From Neocallimastix sp. 'constans' (taxonomy: Eukaryota): a stretch of 64,000 nt of DNA. Each line of letters begins with the position of its first letter. Within the stretch, counting starts at the first letter, position 1. The position numbers and the translations under genes were made by a program. This document shows positions 720-58,506 of this stretch, piece after piece. The notes under the pieces are model-generated. The model saw only the letters and a list, made by a program, of their open reading frames with translations, was not told where the DNA came from and made no database searches. The DNA lies in contig JBODTK010000014.1 in assembly GCA_050613775.1 (NCBI GenBank), forward strand, positions 620,001-684,000, given 5' to 3'.

Positions 720-733
720 CATTTTATCAATTA

Positions 734-2577: not shown

Positions 2578-3487
2578 AATTATGTAAGAATCTATAATTA
2601 TTTTTAAATAAAATAATTATATTTTCATAGTTAAAGTTATAATTATAACTTTATTTAATTATATAATATTTATTCATTTAAATATTATTAATAATTTATT
2701 TAACTCCATATTAAATATTCATTAATTTAATACAACAAATTTTATTTAATTAATTATTATTCATACATTTATAAATAATTATAGTTTATTTAATTATACA
2801 TTTAATTATTAAATTTATTAGTCTTAGTTTATTTATTTAATTAAATTGTAAACAAATATATTATGTATTCTAATATGTATTTTAATAATGTATTCTGTAT
2901 TTTGTTTATTAATATCATTATTATATTGATTTTCTTATTTGTAAATTTATGATTTTATGATCGAAATATTTTTTATTATTTTATTTTTTTATTTTCGATC
3001 AATTACATTAGATTAGCGAATCGGTTAATTAGGGTTTTTCCCAATTACTTCTTAAAAGTAATTGGTTTTACCTAATTGATACGATGATCGATATGGATAG
3101 AATATCGATCAAAATCTTATCTAGGTTTTTCTCTCTAATCTTTTCCTAGATAAGAGATTTGTTAAGATTAGAAAAAATTTTTTAATTTAACCTTATTTTT
3201 CAAAAAAGTATAAATAAGGCTCTTGAATTCTCTTTGAGAAATCAAGAGTTATTATTATAACAATTATAATATAGTAATAACATTAATAAATATTTTATAT
3301 TTCTATTTTAATAAAGTAAGTTTTAATAAAACAAATTTAAAAATAAAATAAAATAATCTTTTCTCTTTGACAATTCTGTGTTATTAGTTTATTATAATTA
3401 GTTATAATAAACTCTTTCTTATAGAAGATAAGTATATTTATCTTTTTTGCTTTCTCAATTTAATAATAATTATTATTTAGTTATTAT

Positions 3488-23972: not shown

Positions 23973-24546
23973 TGTAACGAAACTCATAACTAGTAAATTA
24001 GTAATTATGGTTCAATGGTAAGTTATCATAACCATCGGGCTGAACCCTTAGGGTTCGACACCTACTCTTTCCAAATTTTAATAACTTTTTATTTATTATA
24101 ACTAGAATATTAAAGAAATTACTAGTTTTTATCGGTTAAACAATTGAACCGATAAAACTAGAAAAATCTATTTTATTAATATTTTTTATCATTTTTTATC
24201 TAAGATTCATTTTCTAGAAAGAAAACTTGTTTTCTTTAATTTTCTTTAATTTTCTTTTATTTCTAATAATTACTAATAACAACTGATAACTTAAAATAAT
24301 TAATTTTCCTGAAAAACTATAAATAGGTGTAAAATTTCATAATAAAATATTTTTACTTGTGCTTTTATTAATTAATTTTAAAGTAATTTAAAATATTACA
24401 ATGATTAATTAATAAAATAATAATTTACATTTTTTACTAATAAAAAAACTTATTTTAATAAAACATATTTTAAATTACTTTAGTGTCGAGAACCTTTCGT
24501 GTAAAAAACCTTATAACAATCTTAAGTAACATTAAGATTTGTTACA
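23973..24546 (+). mobile_element. Solo LTR family C nested in the leader of element F
   Basis: TGTAACG...GTTACA; same A/B-box layout as 3902-4545; no clean TSD. Confidence 0.65.
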
Positions 24547-24747
24547 CTCGCGTTTACAATCTACAAAACCTTGCAAAATTGTAAATAAGAGTTTATGAAA
24601 TTAATATCCTGCAAGCTAACACTGTCTTACTCAATATTATTAACTTCGTAAATTTGTTAACTTTTTATTATTTTTTTTTTTATTATTATTTTTTTTATCT
24701 ATAATCTATAATTAAATAAAGTTACTACAAAAACTAAAGTTTTCCAA

Positions 24748-24791
<44 letters not shown>

Positions 24792-25073
24792 ATAACTTTT
24801 ATTATTATTAATATTAATATTAAATTATTAATTATTATTATTTAACAAAACTTATGGATAATCTGATAGTATACCCTGTCTGACGTGCAGCTTGCCTCTT
24901 CACGGCGTCATGCCACGCGGGTACCACGGCTACTGTATTCAATATAAAATACAGCAGTCCAGAGCCTACTAGCCCAATTACTATGTAGGTTAAACTTAGC
25001 CCGGAAATCTATATCCAAGGCTTTGTTAAATAATTTAATTAATAAATAATATTAAATTTTATTTTTCTAATAA

Positions 25074-25091
25074 TCCCCGATATCTCCACCA
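25074..25091 (-). promoter_or_regulatory. PBS, probably tRNA-Ala
   Basis: TGGTGGAGATATCGGGGA, complementary to a tRNA 3' end ...TCTCCACCA; identical at 45676-45693. Confidence 0.8.
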
Positions 25092-25943
25092 TAAATTATG
25101 TTATGGTTCGGGTTTTATTAGAATTTTTATTTAATTATTTATTTTCAATATTTTTCTGTCAACATTTTAATTATTGAAAAACTTCACTTATTTATACTTT
25201 TTGAAAAAAAAATAAATATGTAAAGCCTTTCTACATTTTATTATCATATTTAAAAAAAATAATTTACTATTACTAATTAATTAAAATTTTATATTAATTT
25301 AAATTAACTAATTCATAAGTATTTTTATTTTAATAAATTTTGTTTATATAATTTTATATTATTTTTCATATACTAAAACTAAATTATTTAATATATACGA
25401 AAAGTAACAAACATAATTTAAAAAGATTTTACAGAAAAATAAAGTTATTTTAATCAAGAATGTTAATATAATATTCTTATATTTTATATAAAATAAATTT
25501 AAAAACTATAATATATTTAATATTTATTATTAATCAATTAAGATTTGATTTTATTTGTGGGAAATAAAAATATTAAATAATCAATTTAAAAATAAAATAA
25601 AATACTAAAAAAAAAATACAAGTTTAATATTGATACAATATAATAATAATATAATAATATATTTGAAAATAAAAATAAAATATTAATATTGATAATAAAC
25701 ACTTTAATAAAATAATAAAATTTAAGGTTAAATAATAGATATTGATATTAATAATAAAAATATAGAATTATTGATAATATTTTAGAAACTTTTAATAAAA
25801 ATATAAAAAAAAAATATATTTAGAAAATATTTTAGTATAGAAAATATAGTAAAGTAATATTAAGTAAAGAATAATATAATGGATTCTAAAGTAAGTTGAA
25901 ATTCTAATTAATAATCCATTATATGTTCGTTCTTTATTAATTA

Positions 25944-26865
25944 TGTTGAGGTTCGGGACAGAATAATAATAAATATAGAAATAAACACTAAAATAAAAAA
26001 AAATTAAAAATTAAAATATATCTTTTTTTAAAATATTTTATTTATTTATTTAATAAAAATTATTCAATTAAAAACTAAAAATAAATTAATTTCTTTAATA
26101 AGATGATATCTTTAAGCATATTTCTTTTATTCAAAATACAATTTTCTCATCTATTTATATTTTTTTTTATCGTTAGAAATGGTCAAGCCATTTCTTTAGA
26201 ATATATTAGAATTTTAGTTTGAATTGTATTTAAATTATAAATTCATAATCTATTCTATTATAATAAATAATTATTACATATTATTAAATTCTAAACTATT
26301 TATTATTAATTGTAGTGATAATATATTTTAAAAATAATTTTATTACTTTTACAGAACTATTAGTAATAGAGTATTATTTAATTTTATACTATTTTTAAAT
26401 AAAAGTATTTTAGATTATTATCTATTATTAATCTTATTATAAATAGGGTGTATTTTGGAAGGAAGTATTACTAATTTTAATGACAAGGATCATGGATTTA
26501 AGTAAAATATTTTTAAATCATTATTAATTATATTAATTTTTATTAATAATAAATAATCTGTATTAGTAATATTTGTAAAATAAAATTTTCTTTAATAATA
26601 AAATATTGATAGAATAAATCATATTAATAAAACTAGATATTGATAATAATATTGATATTAATAATATAGTATTAATTTTAATAATAAAGTATTGATATTA
26701 ATAAAGAATTTATATTAATAATAATAAATTTAATATTAGTAATAATTTGGCAGTAATAGAACATAAGAAAGTTCCCCAAGTAAGGAAATAAATAATTTAA
26801 TTTTAGTGGTTAAGTTATTTTTATGAAAAATAATAAAATTAACATTATTTGTTCATTCCTTAACA
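25944..26865 (-). mobile_element. Solo LTR family I (related to F)
   Basis: TGTTGAGGTTCGGG...TTAACA; TSD ATTA recovered after removing later CAATT insertions. Confidence 0.75.
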
Positions 26866-28636
26866 ATTTGTAAGAAACTTAGATAAATTTATTATAAAAT
26901 TTATCTATCTTTCTTATTTAATACATTAATTTAATACATTAAATTATTGTATTTATTTTAACCAATAATATTTAATTATTAATTTATATATATTTGATTC
27001 TCTTGAGTTCTCTTCGAGAAATCAAGAGTTATTATTTTAGAATTTTTATAATAAATAATAATTCAAATAAAATAATTAATTAATAAAACAAAACCTTTTA
27101 ATAAAACATATTTTATAAATATTTGTGTCTTTTATTCCTTTTGTGTTATTGTTTATTATAAACTTTCTATAATAAACTCTATCTTATATTTAAGTTAAGT
27201 ATAATTATTTATTTATATTATTTTATATTTATTTAATTATATTTAATAATTTTATTTTCTCAAATTAATGTTAATTAGTAATAATTAATGTTAATTTGTA
27301 TGTTGAAATTATAACTGAATTGAAATCTCAATTTCAGTTATTTACATTTCAATAGTTAAAAAATATTATTTATTTAATTATAAATAATATATATATTTAA
27401 ATAATTAATAATTAATATAAATTCTTATTTAATACTTAAAGAATTATCTTAGGCCTAATAATTCTGAGAATATTAGTAAATAAGATTTATATTAATAATT
27501 TCAATTATCTACATATGACGTCACATGTATTTATTTATATTATGTTTATATATATGTTTAAATCATATATATTAACTACTATTTTTAATTATTCAAATTA
27601 ATTATACAAATTAAATTTATTTAGTTATATTAAATATTTTAAACATATCGATATTGTTATTATCTTAATATTTTATTAATATTCATATTACTATATTATT
27701 AATATCTTATAATTAAATATTATTATTATGTAACTTACAAAGTATAAAAGAAAGATGTAAAAATCTATCTTTTATGTTCTTTGTAAGGTTATTGTATTTA
27801 CAATAATTATATACTAATAATTCATTAAATAAATATTTTCATTAAATCCTTCAAAGAAATTATTATTTAAAATATTTTTAGATATTAAGTGTTTAAATAA
27901 CTTAACTATTTATCTTATATTATTTTAATTATATTATTATTAATTAATCATTGTTGGATTATTAATATATAATTCAACATATTAACCTAGTAACGTTATT
28001 AAAATCACATATATTTTATATCGTATTATCATTGACACTCTATATGTATTCTATATTATTATATCATTTATATCACTATCCTATCATATCACCGTCCTAA
28101 TAATTTATCATATATTTGTTAATACAACCTACACACGCACACCAATCATATAATAACATACATAATATAATATATTTTAGCTAGACACAGCCCTAATATT
28201 CATATAACCTTATATAGACATATGGCGAACCTTATATGTAACATACTATATTATTAACACATTTATAATCTCAGACAGCCAATCAAATCATGACATATCC
28301 AATTTATACACCCTGCATCGATCTAATTACCATCTCATGACTTATCTTAATTAATTTAATTTAAACACCATAAACGCCATCTATCATCTATCATACACTT
28401 TTTAATTAACACTCTATACTATAATCAATTAAACATATTAAGCATACCTAACATACACACTTTAATCAACACTAAACTTAATTATATACACTTTTATAAA
28501 TTTATTTAATATCTTAATCTTTTATTCATTTATTTAATTATTTTTTAACAAACAATCAAACTACACTACACTTTAATGAATAAGGATGTTTTTACATAAT
28601 TGAAGTATATTGTTAAACATTTGTATTTTATCCATA

Positions 28637-29056
28637 TCATTTAAGAATTCTAATCTCTTCATAATTATTACATAAGTTTTTAATTTGATTGATTTCTTCA
28701 TTAATCCTAAACTTTCTTGCAATAAATCTTTGGTAGTTTACCCTTGGATTCTTCAAAATGTTCGCCTCATAGTCCAAACGTTCTTGAAAGTCCTCTAAAC
28801 AGTCGTACCATAATTCTAAGTCATTCTTAATATTTAAAATAAGTCTACTATTTTGCATGTTTAATAAAGATAATTTTCTAGTTAACTGTCTTTTTATTTC
28901 ATAATAATTTTCATTATCCTTTTCTAATGTTACTATTTCTAGTTTAATATCTAAAAGTTCTTTAATATGATCTACACTAACATCTAAATTTCTTTCAAAA
29001 GATGAATAATGTAAATCAAACTTTTCGAAATAAGTGTTAAATAATCTTCTAGACAT
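28637..29056 (-). CDS. Hypothetical helical/coiled-coil protein, 139 aa
   Basis: ATG-started ORF of normal complexity amid AT-rich DNA; no motif recognised. Confidence 0.55.
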   Translation of the reverse strand: MSRRLFNTYFEKFDLHYSSFERNLDVSVDHIKELLDIKLEIVTLEKDNENYYEIKRQLTRKLSLLNMQNSRLILNIKNDLELWYDCLEDFQERLDYEANILKNPRVNYQRFIARKFRINEEINQIKNLCNNYEEIRILK

Positions 29057-29747
29057 TTGTTAAATAAAATAAAAAAGTTTATATTTTGTTGATGTTAAAA
29101 AAAAAATCATAAACTTTATTCTTGTTTATATGTATAGTTTGAATCTATCGCTTAATCGGTTATTTAATATTTAACCGGATATCATCAAAGGTTACTTTTC
29201 GTTAATTCAAGTTGTTTGTTGTTGTTTTCTTAATAATCCTAATCCTATTAAAAAATGTTAACTATAACCCTTTGTATCAAGTTTATCCTTTTATTTAATG
29301 ATTATAATATTCATTCATTTAATTTTTAAATTAATTATTAAAACTATTTTTAGATATTAACTATTTGTCTACTAATGTTATTGTTAAATTAAAAAAATTA
29401 TTATGATTCATTTTTAACAAAATTAACACACACACACTATTACGTCATATTAACCAATCATTGTAAAAATTTATTTTGGGTTTTAATATAATTTATTAAT
29501 AATATAATAGAATATAACATACATCATATACATAAACATATACAATCATACCACAATAATAAAACATTTTTTTTTCAACGTTTATATTTTGCAAATAGCC
29601 AATAATATAAAATAAATAACAATAAATAATAATAGATAATAATAAATAATCACATATACCATCATATTTCAAATTTTATTAATAAAGCATTTCATTCAAT
29701 AATTCATTATTTATTTTAACTAATTAATAATCATACCAACGTTTTAA

Positions 29748-30779
29748 TCAAACGTATTTAGAATAACGCAAACCCCTAAAGGTAACGTCAATTGTAAAAT
29801 CAAGACAAAAAGTACTATCTTGTAAAAGATTGTTAAATTCAATTTGTCCATTACTAAACTTATAAGTAGGTCCATCACCAGTAATAACATTTATTAAAAA
29901 TGTTGGTTTAAAGGATACAGATGGATTATTTACAGGATTAGTAGGTAAATTAGTATTCCAACCTAAAGATTCATATCTTTCTTCAATATATTCATTTGTA
30001 TCTTTATTAAATGTTTTATACATATTATAAACATTACTATCTTTATCACGAACATATTGAGCCTTAATACTACTAACTGGAACATACTGCGATTTCTCAA
30101 CTAAAGATTCTGGATACAAATATCTTGTTAATCTCAAACTACTACCAGAACCAAGATTTCTTATTAAACTTGATGAATAAGTAGTAATTCTATTACCAAC
30201 AGTACAAAAAAACTTTTGATCAGTAAATGATATATAATCCTCTATATTATCATCTTCATCAAGAGGATCAGCATTAGAATCATAATGATTAGCTGGTAAA
30301 TATATCGGAGATTCTGAATCAGGTTTTCCATACGCAAATTGAATATCTTCTTTAGATAAACCAGTTCTATCCCATGCAGTAACAACAGTTAATTGTTTAG
30401 GATAAACAAAACCACTATTAGTACCATCATCAGGAGAACTCTGAGGCCAATCAACAGATGTTACATCCACTTTAACAGCATTAATTTTAATTTGATCATA
30501 TATTTCTGAAATATTTTTAAAATAATCACTTTGTCTTATAACTTCATAAATATTAACAAAAGCACAACCGGTATTTCTAATTGTGATTAATCTCTTATCT
30601 AAAAGTTCATTATCTTCATAAAAAGGATTAGCGTGTAAATCGATAGCTTCAAGATATTGTCCACATTGAACATTCATCTTATGTCTTAACACAATATTAC
30701 AAGAATCATTTTGGTTAAATGATGCTCGCATATTACCAACAGACTTCCGTCTGGTAATACCTGACCGAAAATTAATCAT
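29748..30779 (-). CDS. Putative CRESS/circovirus-like ssDNA virus capsid protein, 343 aa
   Basis: Intact ORF; basic N-terminus, F-x5-YDQIKINAVKV strand motif, LTRYLYP and terminal VTFRGLR resemble single jelly-roll CRESS capsids (recognised by eye). Confidence 0.6.
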   Translation of the reverse strand: MINFRSGITRRKSVGNMRASFNQNDSCNIVLRHKMNVQCGQYLEAIDLHANPFYEDNELLDKRLITIRNTGCAFVNIYEVIRQSDYFKNISEIYDQIKINAVKVDVTSVDWPQSSPDDGTNSGFVYPKQLTVVTAWDRTGLSKEDIQFAYGKPDSESPIYLPANHYDSNADPLDEDDNIEDYISFTDQKFFCTVGNRITTYSSSLIRNLGSGSSLRLTRYLYPESLVEKSQYVPVSSIKAQYVRDKDSNVYNMYKTFNKDTNEYIEERYESLGWNTNLPTNPVNNPSVSFKPTFLINVITGDGPTYKFSNGQIEFNNLLQDSTFCLDFTIDVTFRGLRYSKYV

Positions 30780-30812
30780 AAAACTATTTTATATCTTAAT
30801 TTTAACATTGTA

Positions 30813-31455
30813 TGTCAAAGTTTTAAGATAATTTGGTCTTAACGATTAGGTCAAGATGCCAAATTATAGTAATTAATTAATAATTTAATTTTATTCTTAT
30901 TTAAAACATATTGTTATTAGTAAATTTTATAAATAAGTTTTTATTTAAAATATAAATTTTATTTAATCTTAATAATATTTTATTACATTATTATTTTATA
31001 TAATTATTACTATAATTTAAATTACAATAATCCTACAAAGGATTAATCAAAAGATTTAAACATGTATTTATATAAAATAATTAATTATTAAAATATTAAT
31101 TATTAATATGAATATGTAATAATATTAATATAAGTTTGATATTGATAATATAAACTAATATAAATATTTAATATAAATAAAATATAAGAATATAACTAAA
31201 TATTATATTTTATAATTAAAATATAATATGTAGAAATTAATTTAATGACAGTCACGTGTTTACATTATTTAATCTATATTAAATTCAATATGTTAATAAC
31301 ATTTAGTAATTAGTTGGCCTAGACTAATTCCTAAATATTTTAATAAAGTTAATTTAATAATAATTATTATATTATTATTTTTTATTAATATTGAAATTCA
31401 AATAACTGAATTATCGAAATTGAAATTGAATTGAAATTCAGTTATTATCTTAACA
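30813..31455 (-). mobile_element. Solo LTR family B
   Basis: TG...CA; TSD TTGTA 30808-30812 / 31456-31460. Confidence 0.85.
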
Positions 31456-31509
31456 TTGTAGTTAAGAAATTATTTATAATTAATTTTATAAGTAATTTCT
31501 TACACAATT

Positions 31510-32536
31510 TGTAAGAAACTTAGATAAATTTATTATAAAATTTATCTATCTTTCTTATTTAATACATTAATTTAATACATTAAATTATTGTATTTATTTT
31601 AACCAATAATATTTAATTATTAATTTATATATATTTGATTCTCTTGAGTTCTCTTCGAGAAATCAAGAGTTATTATTTTAGAATTTTTATAATAAATAAT
31701 AATTCAAATAAAATAATTAATTAATAAAACAAAACCCTTTTAATAAAACATATTTTATAAATATTTGTGTCTTTTATTCCTTTTGTGTTATTGTTTATTA
31801 TAAACTTTCTATAATAAACTCTATCTTAATATTTAAGTTAAGTATAATTATTTATTTATATTATTTTATATTTATTTAATTATATTTAATTTTATTTTCT
31901 CAAATTAATGTTAATTAGTAATAATTAATGTTAATTTGTAGTTAAGAAATTATTTATAATTAATTTTATAAGTAATTTCTTACAATAATAACTCTTCTTT
32001 TTAGGAAGAAAATATTTTATAAATAATTTAATATGAATATAACAAAAAATAATAATTATAATTATAATGGAATAATTAAATTAAATAAATTCATTTTATA
32101 TTATTTACGAAATTTTTTCTTTCTCTCAATTTAAATTTATAAATTTTTTTTTTGTTTATTTTTTATTTTTCTTTTAATTGTTTATGTTTGTTTATGTCAT
32201 ATATATATTATTTATTTTGTTTAATTTATTATTACATTAACTAACAATTCTTTATTATTATATATATTAAACATTATAACTTTATAATAATATGACAACA
32301 CTTATTCTGTTTACTTTGCCTATTTACTTTTAAAAATAAGTCTTTATAAATTTCATAAAAATTAACAATATTAAATACTAACTATTTTACTTTATTTTAT
32401 TTTATATAACATATTTATCTATTATAATATTATATTTATATTATATTTTAATATTATATAATTGTTTTTATATATAACATTATATACATTATATACATTA
32501 TATACATTATATACATTATATATATATATTTTTCTT

Positions 32537-32577
<41 letters not shown>

Positions 32578-32738
32578 AAATAAAATAAAACAAAAATAAA
32601 AACAAAAATAAAAACAAAAAACAAAAACAAAACAAAAAACAAAAACAAAAAATAAATAAAATAAATTAATAATTTAAAAGATAAGTTGTTCAGTTTTCTT
32701 TTCTTTAAAATAAATAAAAATAAAAAATAAATAAATTA

Positions 32739-32783
<45 letters not shown>

Positions 32784-34612
32784 AATAAATAAATAAAATT
32801 ATAATTATGGTAAATAAAGTAATAATAATAATAAATAATAATAATAAAAAAAAAGTTTTTAATATTGATCATACGAACGAAAATAAAATTTTAAAAATTA
32901 TAAGATATATTTAAATATATAATTACAATGTTCTATGATCACATATAGATATTAACACGTGGGCTGAAGTGATATAAAAATTGAAATTCACTTCTATGTA
33001 ATTGAAATAATATATTATTATTAATAATATAATTGTTAATTACTAATTGCCCTTTGTTAAAACAGATATCGGCAAAAGCTATATCTCGTTATATCTATTA
33101 AAAAAAAAAAAAAAAAAAAAAAATACATATATATATATATGTAATATAAAAATTATAAAATATTATTATTATTTATTTAATACATATTTCAAAATATACA
33201 TATAAAATTTAATATAAAAAATTATAAAATATTATTATTTATTTATTTAATAAATAATTCATATGTATAATTTAAATTATTACTTATTTATTTATCTAAT
33301 GAATAATATAACATATATATAATATAAATAATAAAATGTTATTATTTATTTAATAAATATGAAAAATATATAATATATAATATATAATTTAAAATTATTA
33401 TTATTTTCATTCATTTAATGAATAATATACAATATATATATATATTGTAAAATTAATTATTATTATTATTTATTTATTTATTAATACAAAATATATATAA
33501 TATATAATATAAATTTATAAATTATTGTTCATTTAATTATTTATTTAAAATAAATTTTAATTCAAATTTTAAATTTCAATTTTTTAAATTGAAATTGCAA
33601 TTAAATATTTATTTTAATTTTATTTAAATTTTATTTCTTTTTAATATTTCTTAATTTATTATTTCTTAAATTGTTCTTCTTTCATTGAACAATTCAAATG
33701 AAAAGGAGCAATGTAAGAAATACAAATAAATTTATTAATAATTTATTTACATTTCTTAGTTATTATAATTTATTTAATTTAATATTTATTTATTCATTTA
33801 ATAATATAGTCATTTTATTTAATTTTATATTTATTTATACATTTAATAATTATAGTTATTTTATTTAATTTTATAATTATTTATTCACTTACATTTATAT
33901 ATTAGTTTAGAAAACAATATTAAGGTTTTTCCCAAGTTAATTGGTTTTACTTAATATTGATTCGTCTAGAGTTTTTCCGCTAATCTTTTCTCTAGATGTT
34001 AAAAAGTTAAGGTTAGCAAAACTTTCAATAAATTATTTAATTTTATATTTTTTTTGGTTAATTATAATTTTTATTTTAAATATACTACTTCCTATATAAT
34101 AATGAATTTATACAAATTCATTAAGTAAAGGGAGCAATGTAAGAAACTTAGATAAATTTATTATAAAATTTATTTATCTTTCTTATTTAATACATTAATT
34201 TAATACATTAAATTATTGTATTTATTTTAACCAATAATATTTAATTATTAATTTATATATATTTGATTCTCTTGAGTTCTCTTTGAGAAATCAAGAGTTA
34301 TTATTTTAGAATTTTTATAATAAATAATAATTCAAATAAAATAATTAATTAATAAAACAAAACCCTTTTAATAAAACATATTTTATAAATATTTGTGTCT
34401 TTTATTCCTTTTGTGTTATTGTTTATTATAAACTTTCTATAATAAACTCTATCTTAATATTTAAGTTAAGTATAATTATTTATTTATATTATTTTATATT
34501 TATTTAATTATATTTAATTTTATTTTCTCAAATTAATGTTAATTAGTAATAATTAATGTTAATTTGTAGTTAAGAAATTGTTTATAATTAATTTTATAAG
34601 TAATTTCTTACA
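31510..34612 (+). mobile_element. Non-autonomous LTR element E (LTRs 31510-31984 and 34138-34612)
   Basis: Two 475-bp LTRs, PBS ATAATAACTCTT 31985-31996, PPT AAAGGGAGCAA 34127-34137, TSD CAATT, no ORF. Confidence 0.9.
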
Positions 34613-34618
34613 CAATTA

Positions 34619-35869
34619 TGATACGTATCTTTTATATTTAAAGATGTATCTAAATAATTTTATTTGTTTGGACGTTGTCAGAAGGGAATTATTAACAAAA
34701 TAATATATTCTAATAAATATAATAATAACACATAATGTATAAATATAAATATATAATTTAAATGTAAAGATTTGTCTTTATTTATTTATTCTTATTTCTT
34801 TATTTATTTTTATTACATTATTCTCAATGTTTACAAAAATATAAAAATACAAGTTATATATTTATTATTATCTTTCTCACTAACTATCTAATTATACACT
34901 TAATAATTAATATTTAATACTCTATAAACTATTATATTTTCTACTAATAAACCTGTTATTTTGAAGTATCTTTATTATATATTTCCTATATTATAACAAA
35001 GAACTCCTCGTTTTATTATTAATGAATTATCAAAATATGTATCTAACTATTTAGTCTTATTTAATTATCTACCAATCATTATTAATTTTTAATTTATTAC
35101 TTTAACTAATGTTGAAATTATAACTGAATTGAAATCTCAATTTCAGTTATTTACATTTCAATAATTAAAAATATTATTTATTTAATTATAAATAATATAT
35201 ATATTTAAATAATTAATAATTAATATAAATTCTTGTTTAATATTTAAAGGGTTATCTTAGGCCTAATAATTCTGAGAATATTAATAAATAAGGTTTATAT
35301 TAATAATTAATTTCAATGATACATTTGGCGTCACGTGTATTTTATTTATATTATGTTTTTATATATGTTTACAACATATCTATATTAAATTCAATTATTC
35401 AAATTAATTATATAATTAAATTTATCCTTATATTTTATTATTATTTATATTACTATATTATTACTATCTTATAATTAAATATTATTATTATGTAACTTAC
35501 AAAGTATAAAAGAAAGATGTAAAAATCTATCTTTTATGTTCTTTGTAAGGTTATTGTAAAATTACCTTAATAGTAATATATTATAGATATTTTATTAAAT
35601 AAAATCAATAAATTTAAAATCAAATTAATTTGATAATTCTAATTATCAAAGTTTATTATAAATAAATTTTCATTAAACTAAACATTTAAATATTTATTAT
35701 TATTATTATATATCTATATAGTATATTACTATATAGACATATCGACTTAGTGAATATTTTTATTAAAACATATTATTTTATTTAAATTTAAATTAAAAAT
35801 TATATTAAAATCTTAACAACTAATTTCTAAAACTATTTCTAATAATGTTTTTAGTGTGGTATCGTATCA
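34619..35869. mobile_element. Solo LTR family H, interrupted by 35110-35818
   Basis: TGATACG...CGTATCA; TSD ATTA (right copy split by a later insertion). Confidence 0.8.
35110..35818 (+). mobile_element. Solo LTR family K
   Basis: TGTTGAAA...CTTAACA; TSD ACTAA 35105-35109 / 35819-35823. Confidence 0.9.
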
Positions 35870-35872
35870 ATT

Positions 35873-36835
35873 TGTAAGAATCTATAATTATTTTTAAATA
35901 AAATAATTATATTTTCTTAGTTAAGTTATAATTATAACTTTATTTAATTATATAATATTTATTCATTTAAATATTATTAATAATTTATTAAACTCAATAT
36001 TAAATAATCATTAATTTAATACAACAAATTTATTTAATTAATTATTATTTATACATTTATAAATAATTATAGTTTATTTAATTATATATTTAATTATTAA
36101 ATTTATTAGTCTTAGTTTATTTATTTAATTAAATTGTAAACAAATATATTATGTATTCTAATATGTACTTAATAATGTATTCTGTATTTTGTTTATTAAT
36201 ATCATTATTATGTTATTTTCCTTATTTGTAAATTTATGATTTTATGGTCGAAATATCTTTTATTATTTTATTCTTTTATTTTCGATCAATTAAATTAGAT
36301 TAGCTAATCGGTCAATTAGGGTTTTTCCCAATCACTTTTTAAAAGTAATTGGTTTTACCTAATTGATACGATGATCGATATGGATAGAATATCGATCAAA
36401 AATCTTATCTAGGTTTTTCTCTCTAATCTTTTCCTAGATAAGAGATTTGTTAAGATTAGAAAACATTTTTTAATTTAACCTTATTTTTCAAAAAAGTATA
36501 AATAAAGCTCTTGAATTCTCTTTGAGAAATCAAGAGTTATTATTATAACAATTATAATATAGTAATAACATTAATAAATTTTTTATATTTCTATTTTAAT
36601 AAAGTAAGTTTTAATAAAAAACAAATTTAAAAAAAATAAAATAAAATAATCTTTTCTCTTTGACTATTTTGTGTTATTAGTTTATTATAATTAGTTATAA
36701 TAAACTCTCTCTTATAGAAGATAAGTATATTTATCTTTTTTTTGTTTTCTCAATTTAATAATAATTATTATTTAGTTATTATTAAGTTGTAGTTAATAAT
36801 TTAATTCTAATTAATTTTATAATTAAATTATTACA
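35873..36835 (+). mobile_element. Solo LTR family A
   Basis: TGTAAG...ATTACA; TSD CAATT 35868-35872 / 36836-36840. Confidence 0.9.
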
Positions 36836-36841
36836 CAATTA

Positions 36842-37904
36842 TGGTAGACTCGGGGTTGACACTTAGATATTTAAAATCAAGCAGGGGGGACGGGTATTAC
36901 CCTGCTTTGATTTTAAATAAAAAAAAAAAAATAATTCTTTATTAAAAGTTATTTATTTTTTTTATTAATATAAAATTTTATTATTTAAAGTACACATATT
37001 TAATTTTTAAGAAATTGTTACAATATTTATATTTTTTTATAAATTTAAGGTATAATTAATTGTTTATAATTTAAGTAATTTTATAGAATTATTGAATTAA
37101 TTTTATATCAATAATTCATTTTTGTTTTAATTTTTATAAATATAATAATATAATATTCAAATATAATTTAATTAAAAATAATTATAAAATAAATATATAG
37201 AAAATAGTTTTTACTATTTTCTTTGATATTTTTAAGTTAAATAAATTGTTTTTAAAGATTAATATAATAAATTTAATAATCTTTAATTATTTTAAATAAT
37301 ACTTGTAATTATTTTCAAAATAAAATAAAATTTTTATAATATTTAATTAATAAATTTGATAATATTTAAATAATAATTTTTATAATAATTAAAAATTTTT
37401 AATAATAATTTTTAATAATAAATTTAATTAATAATCTTAATAATTTTATAATAATATTTAATAGTTATAATATATAAATTTTTATAATAATATTTAATAA
37501 TTTTAATAATTTTATAATATTAATAATTTATAATAATTTTTAGAATAATATTTAATTAATAATTTTAATAATTTTATAATAATTTTTATAATAATATTTA
37601 ATTAATAATTTTAATAATTTTATAATAATTTTTATAATAATATTTAATTAATAGTTTTAATAATTTAGTATCTTAAAAGTATAATTTTAATATTTACAAT
37701 TGTATTTTAATATACATATATTTAATAATATAACAATAAAGTAATTAATTAAAATTTATTTACATTATTTACAAGTTAAAATTAATTTATATCAAAATAA
37801 ATTAAATTTTATTATTAAGTTTAGGTTATCAAGAATATAGGAAAGTACAATTTAGTAAAGAATTATTAATAATAAAATAAAGGTTATTAATTCATTCTTT
37901 ACTA
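36842..37904 (-). mobile_element. Solo LTR family G
   Basis: Highly similar to 37909-38922; flanked by ATTA; terminal CCA reads CTA. Confidence 0.9.
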
Positions 37905-38945
37905 ATTATGGTAGACTCGGGGTTGACACTTAGATATTTAAAATCAAGCAGGGGGGGACGGGTATTACCCTGCTTTGATTTTAAAAAAATAAATCTTTAT
38001 TAAAAATTATTTATTTTTTTTTTTTTTTATTAATATAAAAGTTTTTTATTTAAAGTACACATTTAATTTTTAAGAAATTGTTACAATATTTATATTTTTT
38101 TATAAATTTAAAGTATAATTAATTGTTTATAATTTAAGTAATTTTATAGAATTATTGAATTAATTTTATATCAATAATTCATTTTTGTTTTAATTTTTAT
38201 AAATATAATAATATAATATTCAAATATAATTTAATTAAAAATAATTATAAAATAAATATATAGAAAATAGTTTTTACTATTTTCTTTGATATTTTTAAGT
38301 TAAATAAATTGTTTTTAAAGATTAATATAATAAATTTAATAATCTTTAATTATTTTAAATAATACTTGTAATTATTTTCAAAATAAAATAAAATTTTTAT
38401 AATATTTAATTAATAAATTTGATAATATTTAAATAATAATTTTTATAATAAGTAAAAATTTTAATAATAATTTTTAATAATAAATTTAATTAATAATCTT
38501 AATAATTTTATAATAATATTTAATAGTTATAATATATAAATTTTTATAATAATATTTAATAATTTTAATAATTTTATAATATTAATAATTTATAATAATT
38601 TTTAGAATAATATTTAATTAATAATTTTAATAATTTTATAATAATTTTTATAATAATATTTAATTAATAGTTTTAATAATTTAGTATCTTAAAAGTATAA
38701 TTTTAATATTTACAATTGTATTTTAATATATACATATATTTAATAATATAACAATAAAGTAATTAATTAAATTTTATTTACATTATTTACAAGTTAAAAT
38801 TAATTTATATCAAAATAAATTAAATTTTATTATTAAGTTTAGGTTATCAAGAATATAGGAAAGTACAATTTAGTAAAGAATTATTAATAATAAAATAAAG
38901 GTTATTAATTCATTCTTTACCATGATGCCCCCTCTAAAACTCAAG

Positions 38946-41900
38946 CTACATCGAAGCTGAGTTATACTTGACTATATTCTTCAAATGAACATTCCTATTC
39001 ATTTGAATTCCAGAATTTGGATCAGCCAAGGTAACCGTATTAAATTGTTTTTTTATAACTTTAAGAGGACCAACAAAATAAGGTTCTAGTTTAGTTCTTG
39101 AAAAATTTCTAACTAGAACTAAATCACCTTCCCTAATTCTTTTTCCCTCATTCAAACTATTTTTTTCCTCTCTTCTAGCAGCCCAATACTTATTTGCATT
39201 TTTAACTTTTTCGGCTGCTTCTAAAGTCCATCGGTAATGATTTATAAATTTTTCTAACAACACTTCATCCGATGACTTATTAATATCCTTGGTAGGTCTA
39301 GCAGCAATATCAAAAGGCTGCTGATCTTCCCTACCATAAACCAACTCAAAACTTGAATGTTTTGTTACCTTATTTTTGGTAGTTCTAAGAGCCCATAAGG
39401 CGGATGGTAAAACTTCATCCCAATCCTTATTCTTAGAACCCAACAACCTCAATAACTTTCCGATCTCTTTATTACGGTTTTCCGTAAGTCCATTACTTTC
39501 TGGATGATATGTGGAAATAAACTTCACATATACATCATAGAGATCTAAAAATATTTTCGTCATGTCCGAGGTGAACTGAACACCATTGTCAGTTGTTATT
39601 ACCTGTGGAACACCATGACGAGCAAACACATTAATTAAGAACTTAATCACATCCTGTGATGTTATATTTTCCGTGGGTTCTGCTTCAACCCATTTGGTGA
39701 AGTAATCCACCACAACCATAATATATTGATTATTATTCTTCGTTTTAATCAAAGGTCCAATAATATCTAAACCCAAATGTATAAAAGGACCTTCTACTTT
39801 AGTTGGAATATTTTCTGTAGGTTCTGGATATGGTTGTGACCTATTCAACTGACACTTGTCACAACTTTGCACCACTCTTTTAATATCCATCACCATATTA
39901 TTCCAATAAAAACTTTTACGAAGCCTTTGATAAGTCTTATAATATCCCTCATGACCTATCTTATGGGCTTCTAAAATAAGTTTTACTCTTTCCGTTTGAT
40001 CAGTAATTAATTTACGATAGTCATTACCATCAACAAAGTAATCTTCACCATCTATCGTAACAAATTTTTCATTTATAAAGTCTTTAATAGTTTTAGAAAG
40101 CAACTCTTCTTCTTCCTTTGAAGTTAACTTAGTTGCCAATACCACAGAATCATCTCTTTTCTTCATCCTAGATAATGCATCGGCTAACACATTTTTCTTA
40201 CCCATTTGATATTGAATTTCAACACCAAGGGTACTAACAGTTAAGCACCACCTTGCTTGCCTAGCATTATTAGGTTCCTTATTTTTAAAGAAACTGATTA
40301 AAGGTTTATGATCTGTTATTACTACTGTTTTATTAGGATTTCCTAATATATAAGATTTCAACTTAGTAATACAATAAATTAATGCAGCTCCTTCCAAGTC
40401 AGTAATGCCATAATTTTTCTCGGCTTTACTTAAACTTCTACTTATATAATGAACTGGATGTTCCTTTTTGGTTTCTAAGTCTTCTTGGAGTAATACTCCT
40501 CCAATACCTTCATAGGAAGCATCCGTTCTAATTATAAACCTTTGATTAAAACTTGGATATTTTAAAATTGGAGCATTTATTAATTTTTCTTTTAACAGAT
40601 CAAAACTTTGTTGATGTTCATTATTCCATTTATATTTAACATTCTTTCTTAATAATTTACATAAAGGAGCAGAGATTTGGGCATATTTATCAATAAAGTT
40701 TCTATAATATCCTACTGCTCCAAGAAAAGATCGTAATTCATGAACATCAACAGGTGCTACCCACTCCTTGATAGCCTTAATTTTGCTATCCTGGGGACTT
40801 AAACCTTTCACTGATGCCTTATGACCTAAGACTTCTACTTCAGTCTGCATAAAGGCACATTTTTCAATGTTAATTTTTAACTTGTGTTGGCGAAATACTT
40901 CCAACACTTGCCTAATGTGGCTTATATGTTCTTCTATACTCTTAGAGTATATTAAAATATCATCTATAAAGTTAAAAACAAACTTTCCTATAAATGGGAA
41001 AAGAATCCTATTCATTTCCCTTTGAAATGTAGCTGGGGCTCCGGTTAAACCAAAAGGCATAACCTTGAATTGGTAGTTACCAAATTTTGTGGTGAAGGTG
41101 GTAATTTCTACACTTTCCTCATCCATCAAAATTTGATGATAACCAGAATAAAGATCCATTGTTGTAAAAATCTGTGCCCCATCTAAACTATCAAATATCT
41201 CATCAATGTAAGGTAATGAATAAGAATCTTTAACTGTTAAATCATTAACCTTACGATAATCAATACATAATCGCCATTTACCGTTCTTCTTCGGTACTAA
41301 CACTATTGGCGATGACCATTCGGAACAAGAAGGTTCAATTAATTTCTTATTAATTAATTTAATTAATTCCTCCTTAAGTATATCCGACTTAAATTTAACT
41401 AATCTATAGCACCTTTGCTTAACTGGTTTCGCACCAGGAATTAAATTAATCTTATGTGGAGGAAGATCAGAAGGTGTTAATTCTTCTGAAGAAGTAGCAA
41501 CTATTTCTAAGTTCTCCTCCAGAATTTTAATTATTTCATCTTTATATTTTTCGTTTAAAGTATTTAGGAAAATTTCATGATGAATATACTGCTTTGGGGA
41601 TAATCCTTCAATTTTCTTTAAATCATTCTTTTTGGAATCCTCATCCAAAGCCTTAATCATACACAACAACTTTTCTTCATCTTCATAATCATTATTAATA
41701 GGTGCAATAACGTCAATTACTCCCTCAGGAGTAATTTGACACAAACTATATAAAATGGGGTGGATAAACAAATTATAATCAATTTGGGTTTTTAAGTTAA
41801 TTAGAATATCGTAAAAAGGATCCTCCTTTTCTACTATTCTACAATTAACCATTAATACAAGATTATTAATCTTTACTGGCACCCGAATGATATAACCTTC

Positions 41901-43001
41901 CGAGTAATCATCATTCTTAGTTGCCAACCTAATTCTGCCACGACTAATATCAATAGGTTCATATTCGGACGGAAGCTTATCTAAAAATTGTTGAGTAATT
42001 ATACTTAAATTACTACATGAATCAATTAAAGCCTTCCCCGAAACACCTTCAACTGTAACATCAACCATGGCAATATCCTCTTCACATGGTTCGTTACCTT
42101 TACTTTTATAAGTGTGGTCTATGTTATTAACGACCACAGTCGTGGCTGACACATTATCCAACACCCCAGAGATATTAGATTGGTCCCTATCCAATTTAAT
42201 ACCCTGTGACACCTTATATCTTAATTTTGGAGCAGCATCCAATAACTGTCCAAAAGTAATATTGCAATGGGCAGAATTTAAATCTTTAAGAATATCATAT
42301 TCTTCTTCCCCCGATTGCATCTTAATTTTCCTAGATACTCTAGAACTTTTATTTTCTTTTTGAGTATCTTTATCTTTACTAATTAACACCTTTGTTAAAT
42401 CAATTACTTTATTATTCTCCTTCACAATACTTTTATTATTATCATTATTTACTTTCATTAAATTTTTATTCTTTCTTTTATCATTATTTACATTATTTAT
42501 AATAACTTCATCATTCACTAATGAATTATTATTAATATTATCATTACTATTATCATTACTATGATTATTACTATAATTAGTATTACTATTACTAGCTCTT
42601 TCATTATCACGAATTTGTCTTTCAATCTCTTTTTCTTTTTCAATTCGTGGTTGAGCTAGAATAGATGGTTTAATTTGTTTAACAATTTTATTACTTATAT
42701 TATTTTCTTTTACTTCTCGTTCTTTCTGTTTTCGTAATGCAGGAGTTATTATAGGTTTAGGATTCTCCTTCAACGACTTATGAATCCTTTTCTCTGCACT
42801 ACCTTCATCATTATTAACATCATAAATTTTACGTTTAGATGCTCCTACTAAATAATCAACTTTCTTTTTATTAACCACCCTTTTATTAGCAGGAGTTTCT
42901 TCAATATTAGAAAGACGAGAATTTTTAATTTCTTTTTGATATTTAATTGAAGCTGCTTTATTAAGTATGGGAGAGCTTCTTATCCCATTACTCAATTTAA
43001 A
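38946..43001 (-). CDS. pol: Pol of element G (PR-RT-RH-IN), entered by -1 frameshift
   Basis: 1349 aa ORF: LIDSCS, FIDD, TDAS, HHCC zinc finger, D..TDNG..E, GPL C-terminal motif. Confidence 0.95.
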   Translation of the reverse strand, partial: FKLSNGIRSSPILNKAASIKYQKEIKNSRLSNIEETPANKRVVNKKKVDYLVGASKRKIYDVNNDEGSAEKRIHKSLKENPKPIITPALRKQKEREVKENNISNKIVKQIKPSILAQPRIEKEKEIERQIRDNERASNSNTNYSNNHSNDNSNDNINNNSLVNDEVIINNVNNDKRKNKNLMKVNNDNNKSIVKENNKVIDLTKVLISKDKDTQKENKSSRVSRKIKMQSGEEEYDILKDLNSAHCNITFGQLLDAAPKLRYKVSQGIKLDRDQSNISGVLDNVSATTVVVNNIDHTYKSKGNEPCEEDIAMVDVTVEGVSGKALIDSCSNLSIITQQFLDKLPSEYEPIDISRGRIRLATKNDDYSEGYIIRVPVKINNLVLMVNCRIVEKEDPFYDILINLKTQIDYNLFIHPILYSLCQITPEGVIDVIAPINNDYEDEEKLLCMIKALDEDSKKNDLKKIEGLSPKQYIHHEIFLNTLNEKYKDEIIKILEENLEIVATSSEELTPSDLPPHKINLIPGAKPVKQRCYRLVKFKSDILKEELIKLINKKLIEPSCSEWSSPIVLVPKKNGKWRLCIDYRKVNDLTVKDSYSLPYIDEIFDSLDGAQIFTTMDLYSGYHQILMDEESVEITTFTTKFGNYQFKVMPFGLTGAPATFQREMNRILFPFIGKFVFNFIDDILIYSKSIEEHISHIRQVLEVFRQHKLKINIEKCAFMQTEVEVLGHKASVKGLSPQDSKIKAIKEWVAPVDVHELRSFLGAVGYYRNFIDKYAQISAPLCKLLRKNVKYKWNNEHQQSFDLLKEKLINAPILKYPSFNQRFIIRTDASYEGIGGVLLQEDLETKKEHPVHYISRSLSKAEKNYGITDLEGAALIYCITKLKSYILGNPNKTVVITDHKPLISFFKNKEPNNARQARWCLTVSTLGVEIQYQMGKKNVLADALSRMKKRDDSVVLATKLTSKEEEELLSKTIKDFINEKFVTIDGEDYFVDGNDYRKLITDQTERVKLILEAHKIGHEGYYKTYQRLRKSFYWNNMVMDIKRVVQSCDKCQLNRSQPYPEPTENIPTKVEGPFIHLGLDIIGPLIKTKNNNQYIMVVVDYFTKWVEAEPTENITSQDVIKFLINVFARHGVPQVITTDNGVQFTSDMTKIFLDLYDVYVKFISTYHPESNGLTENRNKEIGKLLRLLGSKNKDWDEVLPSALWALRTTKNKVTKHSSFELVYGREDQQPFDIAARPTKDINKSSDEVLLEKFINHYRWTLEAAEKVKNANKYWAARREEKNSLNEGKRIREGDLVLVRNFSRTKLEPYFVGPLKVIKKQFNTVTLADPNSGIQMNRNVHLKNIVKYNSASM

Positions 43002-43675
43002 CGTTTATTGTTTCTAATTTCTTTCCTATTTTTCTCAACAATTGCTCTCAACTTTGGGCAATTGTTTTGATAATGACCTGGTTCTTTACAGAAATAACAA
43101 GCCTTTATTGTTAAACTTCTCATTTTTCTTGTTAATTCCTCTATGTTATTATCTTCTTTAGGTTTAATATTAACTTTTTGTTCTAATTTATTTTTAATAG
43201 GAGGATGAAAATTAACTCTATTACTAAAAGAAGATGTATTTGCAGAAGGTGAAGGGTTAGTAGGATGTCTTCTTTGATTACTACCCATATAAGTTAACCT
43301 ATCTGCTTTTTCAGCAATTTTAAAGGCTTTTGACAGAGAAATGTTATCAAATAAGGTTAGACGTTTCCAGGCTTCAACATTGTTTTCAATGGAGTCTGTG
43401 TAATCTAAAACACTTATCTGACTTCTTTTCTTTTTATTTAATTTTAAATATAAAGTTTTATACTTAATATTAAAATCTTTGATTCTTTCATTTCTCTTAA
43501 TTCTTAGAGCACGTAGCTCTCTTAATAAATTATTTTGATCCTCCCTAATGCCATAAAATTCTTCTATCGCTTTTACAATTCTATTAAGGGAAGGATAAGC
43601 CTTATTCTTTTTATCAATTTCTTTATCTTCTTCATTATCATCATCCTCATCTTCATCATTAATATCCTTATAATT

Positions 43676-43706
<31 letters not shown>

Positions 43707-43936
43707 CTATCATCATCTTTATTATTATCATCCATTAATTCTTGGATGACTTTCCTGGTTTCACCAATTGAGGTTAAAACACAGGCATAAAATATAATCT
43801 TGGAGTCTTCAACATGTTCAAGCTTTATCCAAAGCTCTAAATCAGACTTCCAAGTTTTAACATCTAAATTTTCTTTGGATATTTTTTCAATATCCTTAAG
43901 TTCCTTTTTTAAATCTTTAAAATTAATTGTACTCAT
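42992..43936 (-). CDS. gag: Gag of element G with CCHC zinc knuckle
   Basis: CYFCKEPGHYQNNC; homologous to gag of element F. Confidence 0.92.
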
Positions 43937-44911
43937 TTTAAAAAAAACACACTTTTAAAAAAAAAAATAAAATAAAAAAAAAATTGTTTTATTAATTATT
44001 TAATTGCTATATTTTTATTTATTTATTTATTTATTTACAATTAAAATTATATATTTAAGTAATTTATATCTCTAGTGAGACGTTTCCGGCTAGTGTATAT
44101 TTAATTTTGCTATATACACCCGTACTCCCCCTCCTGGACACTAGAATAAATATAAATTAATAAACTAGTTGGAGTGTTCACTATTCTTTCAAGCTAATAA
44201 CCCCTTTCGTTTATCTTTACTTAAATAAAAAAAAATATATACAATTATTTACAAAAAAAATTTTTTTTTTTTTTTAATATAGCAATTAAAAATATTTAAA
44301 AACACAAAAATTAATATTTTTTTTTTTTTTTTTTTTTTATTTATTTATTTATTTGTTATCGGTTATTATTACAATATTTACAATTACAATTACAATTATT
44401 ATTAAGTTTATATAATTACAACTTAAAAAAAACAAATAAACTTAATTAAAAACAAGGTAAATTAACAAACCTAATACAACTTGAAAAACCGCTATCTATT
44501 ACAACTGCCGACCACGCAGAGGGACCTTAGTATTTCGGTATACTAAGTGAATTTGCCTGAGTCAAGTGGAGGAGCACCCAAACCGTGTTGAACGTATAAT
44601 GGGTGATCTATAGGGTAATTTCTGCTTCCCAACAGTATTTACCGCTATATCTAATCGGGGTTCGATTAGTTCGTAACCGGCCCCTCTCCAAACACCTGAT
44701 TAAACCACTCGCAATTATAGAATTATCTATAACTGCTTAGTACGCAGTAAACTCAGTATATAGTTTTATTTGGAGCACGCGAAGACCAAATAAAACTGAT
44801 GTTAATTTTTATTACTACCACAACAACAATCACAACAACAACACCAACCACAACAACAACACAAAAACCGATAACAAAAAAAAATTTGATGATGATGAAT
44901 GTAAAAGTGTG

Positions 44912-44977
<66 letters not shown>

Positions 44978-45061
44978 TAATTTAATTTAATTTAATTCTA
45001 TTAAATTTAATTTAAAAAAATTATTCTCATAATTCCAAAAAAAATAAGTCCTAGTAGTTCC

Positions 45062-45632
45062 AATTTCCTTCTTGGTCTTCTCCTTCTTGGTCTTCTTCTT
45101 GGTCTTCTTCTTGGTCTTCTTCTTGGTCTTCTTCTTGGTCTTCTTCTTGGTCTTCTTCTTGATTTTCTTCTTGGTCTTCTTCTTGGTTTTCTTCTTGGTC
45201 TTCTTCTTGGTTTTCTTCTTGGTCTTCTTCTTGGTTTTCTTCTTGGTTTTCTTCTTGGTCTTCTTCTTGGTCTTCTTCTTGGTTTTCTTCTTGGTCTTCT
45301 TCTTGGTTTTCTTCTTGGTCTTCTTCTTGGTTTTCTTCTTGGTTTTCTTCTTGGTTTTCTTCTTGGTCTTCTTCTTGGTTTTCTTCTTGGTCTTCTTTTT
45401 CTTGGTCTTCTTCCACTTGGTTTTCTTCTTGGTCTTCTTTTTCTTGGTCTTCTTCCACTTGGTCTACTTCTTGGTCTTCTTTTTCTTGGTCTTCTTCCAC
45501 TTGGTCTACTTCTTGGTCTTCTTTTTCTTGGTCTTCTTCCACTTGGTCTACTTCTTGGTCTTCTTTTTCTTGGTCTTCTTCCACTTGGTCTACTTCTTGG
45601 TCTTCTTTTTCTTGGTCTTCTTCCACTTGGTC

Positions 45633-45664
<32 letters not shown>

Positions 45665-45676
45665 CTTCTTCTTCTT
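45062..45676. repeat. Minisatellite (12-bp TTCTTCTTGGT(C/T) units, 39-bp higher-order unit, TTC run)
   Basis: Direct reading; abuts the PBS of element G. Confidence 0.95.
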
Positions 45677-46726
45677 CCCCGATATCTCCACCAATTTTGG
45701 TAGACTCGGGGTTGACACTTAGATATTTAAAATCAAGCAGGGGGGGACGGGTATTACCCTGCTTTGATTTTAAAAAAAATAAATCTTTATTAAAAATTAT
45801 TTATTTTTTTTTTTTTTTATTAATATAAAAGTTTTTTATTTAAAGTACACATTTAATTTTTAAGAAATTGTTACAATATTTATATTTTTTTATAAATTTA
45901 AAGTATAATTAATTGTTTATAATTTAAGTAATTTTATAGAATTATTGAATTAATTTTATATCAATAATTCATTTTTGTTTTAATTTTTATAAATATAATA
46001 ATATAATATTCAAATATAATTTAATTAAAAATAATTATAAAATAAATATATAGAAAATAGTTTTTACTATTTTCTTTGATATTTTTAAGTTAAATAAATT
46101 GTTTTTAAAGATTAATATAATAAATTTAATAATCTTTAATTATTTTAAATAATACTTGTAATTATTTTCAAAATAAAATAAAATTTTTATAATATTTAAT
46201 TAATAAATTTGATAATATTTAAATAATAATTTTTATAATAAGTAAAAATTTTAATAATAATTTTTAATAATAAATTTAATTAATAATCTTAATAATTTTA
46301 TAATAATATTTAATAGTTATAATATATAAATTTTTATAATAATATTTAATAATTTTAATAATTTTATAATATTAATAATTTATAATAATTTTTAGAATAA
46401 TATTTAATTAATAATTTTAATAATTTTATAATAATTTTTATAATAATATTTAATTAATAGTTTTAATAATTTAGTATCTTAAAAGTATAATTTTAATATT
46501 TACAATTGTATTTTAATATATACATATATTTAATAATATAACAATAAAGTAATTAATTAAATTTTATTTACATTATTTACAAGTTAAAATTAATTTATAT
46601 CAAAATAAATTAAATTTTATTATTAAGTTTAGGTTATCAAGAATATAGGAAAGTACAATTTAGTAAAGAATTATTAATAATAAAATAAAGGTTATTAATT
46701 CATTCTTTACCAATTAATTTCGTATT

Positions 46727-46798
46727 GGCTCAATGGTTTAGTGGTATAATTCTCGCTTAGGGTGCGAGAGGTCCCGGGTTCAATTCCCGGTTGAGCCC
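46727..46798 (+). tRNA. trnP: tRNA-Pro(AGG)
   Basis: GGCTCAA/TTGAGCC acceptor stem, CTCGC-TTAGGGT-GCGAG anticodon arm, GGTTCAATTCC T arm, oligo-T terminator at 46799. Confidence 0.97.
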
Positions 46799-58490: not shown

Positions 58491-58506
58491 TTTTGAATTT
58501 CGTGTT

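Follow-up and report, generated by a model that had tools for sequence, protein, structure and literature searches.

In the genome of the anaerobic fungus Neocallimastix sp. 'constans', a ~734-bp retrotransposon LTR is present whole, but 2,773 bp of virus-derived sequence break it 32 bp before its end. This insert includes an undamaged gene whose product is predicted to be a single jelly-roll capsid of the CRESS type. The locus is likely an endogenous viral element lodged in a solo LTR, and not an LTR that spreads a capsid. We consider it probable that it arose by a single insertion, via microhomology-guided DNA repair during infection of the fungus by a CRESS-type ssDNA virus, with no later spread. 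The firm ground is a complete LTR, two positioned junctions with ATTAA on both sides, a capsid fold, and close relatives that lie outside any LTR.

The interrupted LTR and its setting

The window, by which we mean the whole 64,000-nucleotide stretch analysed here, consists mostly of nested Ty3/gypsy elements and solo LTRs, plus two tRNA-Pro genes, with a GC content of 9-18% between coding stretches. The unit of interest (27301-30807) opens with TGTTG, closes with TTAACA, and is flanked by a TTGTA target-site duplication (27296-27300 and 30808-30812), as an earlier note on this DNA had described. The ~495 bp of LTR-family likeness claimed there was also borne out: positions 27301-27794 match two other LTRs of the window over 419 and 418 of 442 aligned bases (~95%). 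A gag-pol element has one of the two as its 5' LTR, and the complement of the self-priming motif GTAAGGTTATTG, found at 27783 in the unit, stands directly behind that LTR at 14077. We take this arrangement of motif and primer site to resemble Tf1-type self-priming. Self-priming Ty3/gypsy elements like Tf1, and Ty3-type elements that target tRNA genes, presumably share with this locus a primer site complementary to their own transcript start, 5-bp duplications and stacked insertions upstream of tRNA genes; to our knowledge, none of their known members carries genes inside its LTR. With its termini and 5-bp duplication, its homology to a gag-pol LTR and a complete U3-R-U5, the host of the insert has what belongs to the solo LTR of a self-priming element. 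TTGTA comes directly after 30807, and downstream of that position we found neither a primer site nor a polypurine tract, nor another LTR of the element.

The first 702 bp of this solo LTR (27301-28002, plus strand) hold U3, the self-priming motif, R and most of U5, and close with ATTAA (27998-28002); the final 32 bp of U5 lie at 30776-30807 on the same strand. Between them, the insert occupies 28003-30775 (minus strand), including a second ATTAA at 30771-30775. The earlier note had proposed that the usual ~215-bp remainder of the LTR was replaced by the cargo, a view that the read data contradict. In four public runs mapped onto 29740-30870, the loose contig ends before 30771 correspond to window positions 27973-27997 (seven contigs in run X17 and two in run X6, among the loose ends listed), and their 11-base core occurs only once in the window. 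Insert-free contigs in these two runs thus join 27997 directly to 30771, and the LTR is therefore complete (702 + 32 = 734 bp) and interrupted. The same contigs exclude a candidate LTR end at TTCAACA near 27979, with its degenerate primer site, since they read through it into 30771. Across 27795-28002, the two matching LTRs align weakly (of 1000 shuffles, 49 and 233 score as high), and we therefore regard this LTR as a diverged subfamily; the stretch 27796-28020 and the terminal 40 bp likewise aligned with the other LTRs of the window weakly or no better than shuffles.

Mapped reads covered the right junction, and the left one was placed from a match to the metagenomic contig L002 together with the junction comparison. 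L002 matches 29930-28009 at 84.6%, so that the match ends no more than 7 bp from the left junction; it contains no LTR match. At the right border, the ATTAA falls within codons two and three of the capsid gene, which starts with M-I in the window and with M-V in all 12 close relatives listed. A viral-metagenome contig fits 30562-30779 with 14 differences (94% identical), a fit that ends right after the ATG, and its final 13 letters beyond the ATG are unlike the LTR tail. Compared in this way, the sequences suggest that the start of the capsid gene was most likely supplied by the LTR.

The unit is itself nested in a 475-bp host LTR, uninterrupted copies of which lie at 31510-31984 and 34138-34612 with a single TTGTA. 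A further solo LTR, of a related family and in the opposite orientation (30813-31455, minus strand), which the earlier note had overlooked, adjoins the unit at the same TTGTA site; the two share the copy at 30808-30812, and a third TTGTA follows at 31456-31460. The earlier note had also placed the unit at the -65 tRNA-relative site of its LTR family. This stands as a reconstruction only, with no tRNA nearby today: the sole Rfam match in 24000-47000 is the tRNA-Pro at 46727, now ~16 kb from the unit. The reconstruction draws on the TTGTA at 31456-31460 and on the ACTAA at 35819-35823, which belongs to the solo LTR 35110-35818; each ends 49 bp before a CAATT end, and the CAATT end corresponds to -12 of that tRNA-Pro.

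The viral genes and their genomic copies

The capsid gene (29748-30779, minus strand) encodes 343 aa, starts 28 bp inside the CA end of the unit, and overlaps the LTR junction with its first codons. It had been read from motifs as a CRESS- or circovirus-like capsid, and structure prediction together with Foldseek comparison to viral capsids upholds a jelly-roll fold. The AlphaFold2 model, built from a 58-sequence alignment, reaches a pLDDT of 84.7 and a pTM of 0.83. The Foldseek matches listed from the PDB are capsids of parvoviruses, circoviruses and nodaviruses (best E 4e-7), the best match in BFVD is a Cressdnaviricota capsid (E 5e-19), and the top Atlas clusters are mostly Cressdnaviricota; VIA-align against jelly-roll capsids gave Z-scores of up to 10.5 (rmsd 3.5, 169 aligned). 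On this modelled structure, the protein is predicted to be a single jelly-roll, CRESS-type capsid. It shares with the Circoviridae capsid (PF02443) the single jelly roll and a basic N-terminus, and aligns with a bat circovirus capsid at Z 9.8 (rmsd 4.4, 168 aligned). However, it differs from that family in its length of 343 aa with large insertions, in a weak Circo_capsid score of 14 bits against a cut-off of 36.2, and in that its closest predicted structures are unclassified Cressdnaviricota capsids. PF02443 is annotated on 20 of its 62 homologues.

A profile search found 333 representatives (at 50% identity) among 1.84 billion sequences, and among the close matches that bear a name is a Neocallimastix protein (80%). 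Ten further clusters of capsids yielded no names of organisms. A sequence search of the PDB with the capsid returned nothing below E 0.4; scans of IMG/VR with the capsid, the capsid alignment and ORF2 found no relative, and neither did the GTDB contigs.

The second gene, ORF2 (28637-29056, minus strand), is a virus gene of 139 aa. The earlier claim of two intact antisense ORFs holds for the capsid, but not for ORF2, which is frameshifted near its end in comparison with L002 and most other relatives: 22 of the 25 family members compared have 161-164 aa. No Pfam family scored above its cut-off. That no Rep, gag or pol is present was confirmed, as 24000-34000 holds just these two ORFs of at least 60 aa; absence of an HUH-SF3 Rep from the element is expected for a fragment. 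A search of the insert for a nonanucleotide within a stem gave three loose pattern matches, none between obvious arms.

Capsid pieces from runs X6, X17 and X14 differ from the window copy at 0-1 positions, and a second genomic copy of the capsid is ~86-89% identical to it. That copy starts with M-V and has a one-base gap in the capsid. Between it and the window copy, 25 of the 40 differences listed (76 in total) are synonymous, where 20% would be expected, and this excess indicates divergence under purifying selection. In the capsid tree, the window sequence groups with ten metagenomic sequences (support 100/98 with 71 rows, 97/98 with 18 rows), and a topology test rejects a tree that unites the genomic copies in one clade (p-AU 0.03), though marginally and with gapped gene models as input. 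Given its different start and the mostly synonymous differences, the second copy is probably a separate integration. Two independent integrations would suit ORF2 less well: it is shortened at the identical place in both genomic copies, and a single origin is not rejected (p-AU 0.11). The second capsid lies between two identical ORF2 models, as judged by accession order, which suggests a head-to-tail viral integration at that locus. A third capsid-like locus, in run X6, had no match among the 419 proteins compared.

As for abundance, contigs identical to the window copy have depths of 40.5 and 41.5 in run X6, the second copy stands at 47.9-56.3 and the third locus at 51.7. The bin that contains the LTR tail sums to a depth of 16,314 in the same run, a measure that gives no copy number and has no single-copy host gene as a baseline, and in run X17 the insert stands at ~6 against 9,536 for the LTR tail. 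The exact ORFs sit on assembled contigs that reach 4,845 bp and so exceed the unit's own 3,507 bp. These figures suggest that the cargo is low- or single-copy, although a rare or identical second copy may exist beyond the pieces listed.

How the insert arrived

We posit the following course of events. A self-priming Ty3/gypsy element would have integrated upstream of a tRNA gene, at a distance of ~65 bp, and would have been reduced to a solo LTR; before or after that reduction, viral DNA would have been joined into its U5 via the few bases that LTR and capsid start have in common, with the start codon kept by luck; and the second LTR and later elements may have landed on the tRNA side, displacing the locus by 16 kb. 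Being a fragment with neither a Rep nor a recognisable origin, the insert would be an inert endogenous viral element. There are counterpoints to such a repair event: a 5-bp direct repeat is also left by LTR integrase, and microhomology is also typical of template switches by reverse transcriptase. Perhaps, then, reverse transcriptase captured the viral sequence through two template switches at ATTAA, placing the cargo in both LTRs of an element; one integrated copy would later have shrunk to this solo LTR, and the element would not have gone on to spread. The microhomology at the junctions and the position in U5 fit this scenario, as does the LTR-mediated uptake of non-retroviral sequence in mosquito and nematode genomes (10.1101/127498; PMC5177903), although the cases as given in these sources concern RNA viruses. 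The make-up of the insert - two genes, 691 bp of intergenic sequence and 634 bp downstream, with no sign of poly(A) or splicing - looks like DNA and not like a co-packaged mRNA, and no second cargo-bearing LTR copy was seen among the mapped pieces listed from the four runs. We therefore consider capture by reverse transcription unlikely.

The earlier note went further, in that it saw the capsid-bearing LTR as a mobile unit, or as the LTR of a larger element, by which the capsid is spread. Part of that reading survives, namely that a CRESS-like capsid sits inside an LTR at a tRNA-relative site. Spread by the LTR does not, despite the TG...CA ends and perfect target duplication around the full 3.5 kb, the intact capsid, and the two or more copies of the capsid that Neocallimastix genomes contain. 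The ends and the duplication are accounted for by the LTR alone, within which the cargo has borders of its own; insert-free LTRs predominate, being abundant in two runs, and the cargo itself looks low- or single-copy. The tail at 30807 lacks what should follow it in a larger element, and the other genomic capsid has no LTR-derived start, shows mainly synonymous differences and, going by accession order, has an ORF2 model on either side. What we find points to a single endogenisation event in a solo LTR, with independent boundaries, and this is the outcome that the earlier note had itself named as fatal to its model, to which we give a very slim chance. Scarcely better are the prospects of a related scenario, in which a tRNA-targeting self-priming retrotransposon took the capsid into its U5 during reverse transcription, gave it a start codon, and survives as an uncommon element whose 3.5-kb LTRs encode the capsid; were this slim chance to prove true, it would be a retroelement carrying the jelly-roll capsid of an ssDNA virus of its fungal host. 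Lastly, near-identical virus-like sequence in faecal metagenomes could point to an assembly chimera of fungal and free viral DNA. Against this, an independent contig covers 30206-30807 with zero differences, reaching 32 letters into the LTR tail; the exact M-I capsid protein is present on 20 contigs; and ORF2 has a 99% match in named Neocallimastix records, on a 934-kb contig. A chimera is thus extremely improbable.

Insertion by DNA repair, the course we favour, is compatible with a present use of the insert, and the likelihood of such a use is not to be added to it. Two facing LTR promoters might yield dsRNA, or capsid protein might be made, either of which would interfere with related viruses. 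The capsid ORF is intact, the LTR at 30813-31455 aims at its ATG from 34 bp away, the host LTR aims the opposite way, and seven RNA runs contain part of the stretch, with contigs of X14 identical to this copy. The contigs from RNA runs, however, may derive from DNA and tell nothing of strand or transcription; 29 bases ahead of the capsid ATG there is another ATG, out of frame; and the capsid of the second copy carries its one-base gap. The intact capsid and the 0-1 differences among runs may speak for some selection, but a young insert stays intact without any; on balance, a benefit to the fungus seems quite unlikely.

The donor viruses and their fungal hosts

In the full-text literature, a scope that leaves most subscription papers outside, none of the papers listed deals with CRESS viruses of Neocallimastigomycota, with endogenous elements from such viruses in these fungi, or with a capsid placed in an LTR. 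A 2021 survey by Zhao, Lavington and Duffy is said to treat endogenous CRESS Reps across eukaryotes, and may list anaerobic fungi. One source gives Genomoviridae as the fungal CRESS family for which hosts are known by experiment, and also reports endogenous viral elements (EVEs) of oomycetes (10.64898/2026.04.22.720165). Endogenous elements of Cressdnaviricota serve host assignment (Kinsella et al. 2022, PMC9615429), in a text whose available part does not name anaerobic fungi. As in those elements, a fragment of a Rep-encoding ssDNA virus here lies in a eukaryotic genome and has close free relatives in metagenomes; it differs in its host, a zoosporic anaerobic fungus of the Neocallimastigomycota, a phylum that goes unmentioned in that part of the text, and in that its relatives occupy contigs of 5-10 kb, often with two capsid paralogues. 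A parallel for the LTR setting is eBxnv-1, a nodavirus RdRp in a Bel/Pao retrotransposon of Bursaphelenchus xylophilus (PMC5177903). In both cases, an intact non-retroviral gene lies in LTR-element sequence, in some strains and, as far as the available part of that source goes, apparently with no further full copies; the nematode case, however, has an RNA-virus gene between two LTRs with pol remnants, whereas here DNA-virus sequence lies in the U5 of a solo LTR. EVEs of Aedes aegypti, gained through recombination with LTR retrotransposons (10.1101/127498), likewise place virus fragments in LTR-dense loci, with possible small-RNA immunity, but those described there involve RNA viruses and piRNA clusters, and ours is a DNA-virus sequence.

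The ten metagenomic capsids that group with the window capsid are 92.7-94.2% identical to it. The cluster of this type shares seven contig sizes (5,267, 5,284, 5,289, 5,296, 5,325, 6,293 and 10,012 bp) with a second capsid-like cluster of 487-493 aa, and ORF2 relatives occur on contigs of 6,293 and 10,012 bp; judged by these equal sizes only, the two capsid clusters and ORF2 would be linked on the same contigs. Among the seven metagenomic loci of the capsid family, most of the others being short, one (L006; 7,397 bp, 24% capsid identity) has both a Rep, with Viral_Rep at E 1.4e-8 and an SF3 helicase at E 1.1e-8, and a nonanucleotide stem-loop, with TAGTATTAC between inverted arms. Another (L003; 5,419 bp) carries a pair of capsid-like genes but lacks a Rep, and in one Rep cluster, five of the six members lie on contigs of 4,985-5,028 bp; because of this, a divided or a ~10-kb genome of the donor lineage is possible.

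A search with the L006 Rep showed an abrupt drop in score past 34 hits. In a quick tree, comprising search hits only and no classified references, a long-branched clade of the L006 type makes up 38 of the 51 rows, against 13 other hits. Within this clade, five Anaeromyces and two Neocallimastix genome proteins occupy scattered positions. In UniRef, one N. californiae protein carries a label for a CRESS Rep domain. An IMG/VR scan with the Rep alignment yielded only generic CRESS Reps at 21-34% identity and short motif hits. A Piromyces capsid falls on a distant branch of the capsid tree. Pieces of the lineage thus occur in Neocallimastix, Anaeromyces and Piromyces, all of which belong to a single fungal phylum. 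Runs with a small share (X20-X24) were not counted as evidence of habitat, with the exception of X21.

Taken together, the insert is likely a trace of circular DNA viruses of anaerobic gut fungi that form a group yet to be described. Considering that the closest free relatives are 93-94% identical, the donor viruses probably circulate to this day, and cultures are a place to look for them. The locus offers a base-resolved case of DNA-virus sequence entering an LTR, and as a fossil it ties to the Neocallimastigomycota, the fibre-degrading fungi of the herbivore gut, both a separate clade of Reps and a capsid family that is large and has poor annotation.

LTR elements upstream of tRNA-Pro genes

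Upstream of the tRNA-Pro at 46727, some 20 kb of the window (26864-46726) consists of LTR elements stacked head-to-tail. The motif CAATT, which occupies positions -16 to -12 of this tRNA gene, is present at several of the joins, and another class of LTR in the stack has its insertion point 49 bp farther out; different families in this stack thus use two target positions. The element adjoining the tRNA gene contains a 12-bp tandem repeat (45051-45722) that encodes an acidic low-complexity ORF.

CAATT is also the target duplication of a non-coding element at 31510-34612, whose 475-bp LTRs are 99.4% identical to each other. Its primer site is complementary to a motif within its own LTR, a purine tract is present, and the element contains no ORF of 100 aa; it appears to be a non-autonomous element that primes itself and is still young.

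Elsewhere in the window, a gag-pol element (51209-58492) with 1-kb LTRs that are 99.7% identical ends ~15 bp upstream of the tRNA-Pro at 58507. Related solo LTRs of ~950 bp each lie in tandem at 682-3534, and a relative of the minus-strand solo LTR 30813-31455 is found at 3488-4821, with another insertion nested inside.

Metagenomic relatives of the capsid

The metagenomic contig L006 (1-7397) is CRESS-like, with a Rep, an origin stem-loop and a capsid, as well as three more ORFs of 210-470 aa without a Pfam family. Contigs carrying its relatives measure 7.1-7.4 kb, which is large for the phylum Cressdnaviricota. A second contig, L003 (1-5419), holds two capsid paralogues and three ORFs of no known identity, and no Rep; it may be a single component of a divided genome, or else an incomplete contig.

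Further capsid-like loci

In the public sequencing run X6, a 3,918-bp contig of similar depth carries a third, more distant capsid-like sequence, which matches window 30469-30528 and could be paired with none of the proteins compared. At the second Neocallimastix locus (KAG4093243-KAG4093247 and KAL6599445-KAL6599448), accession order places the capsid model between two identical models of ORF2, the other virus-derived gene of the insert, and this locus is possibly a viral integration of more than unit length.
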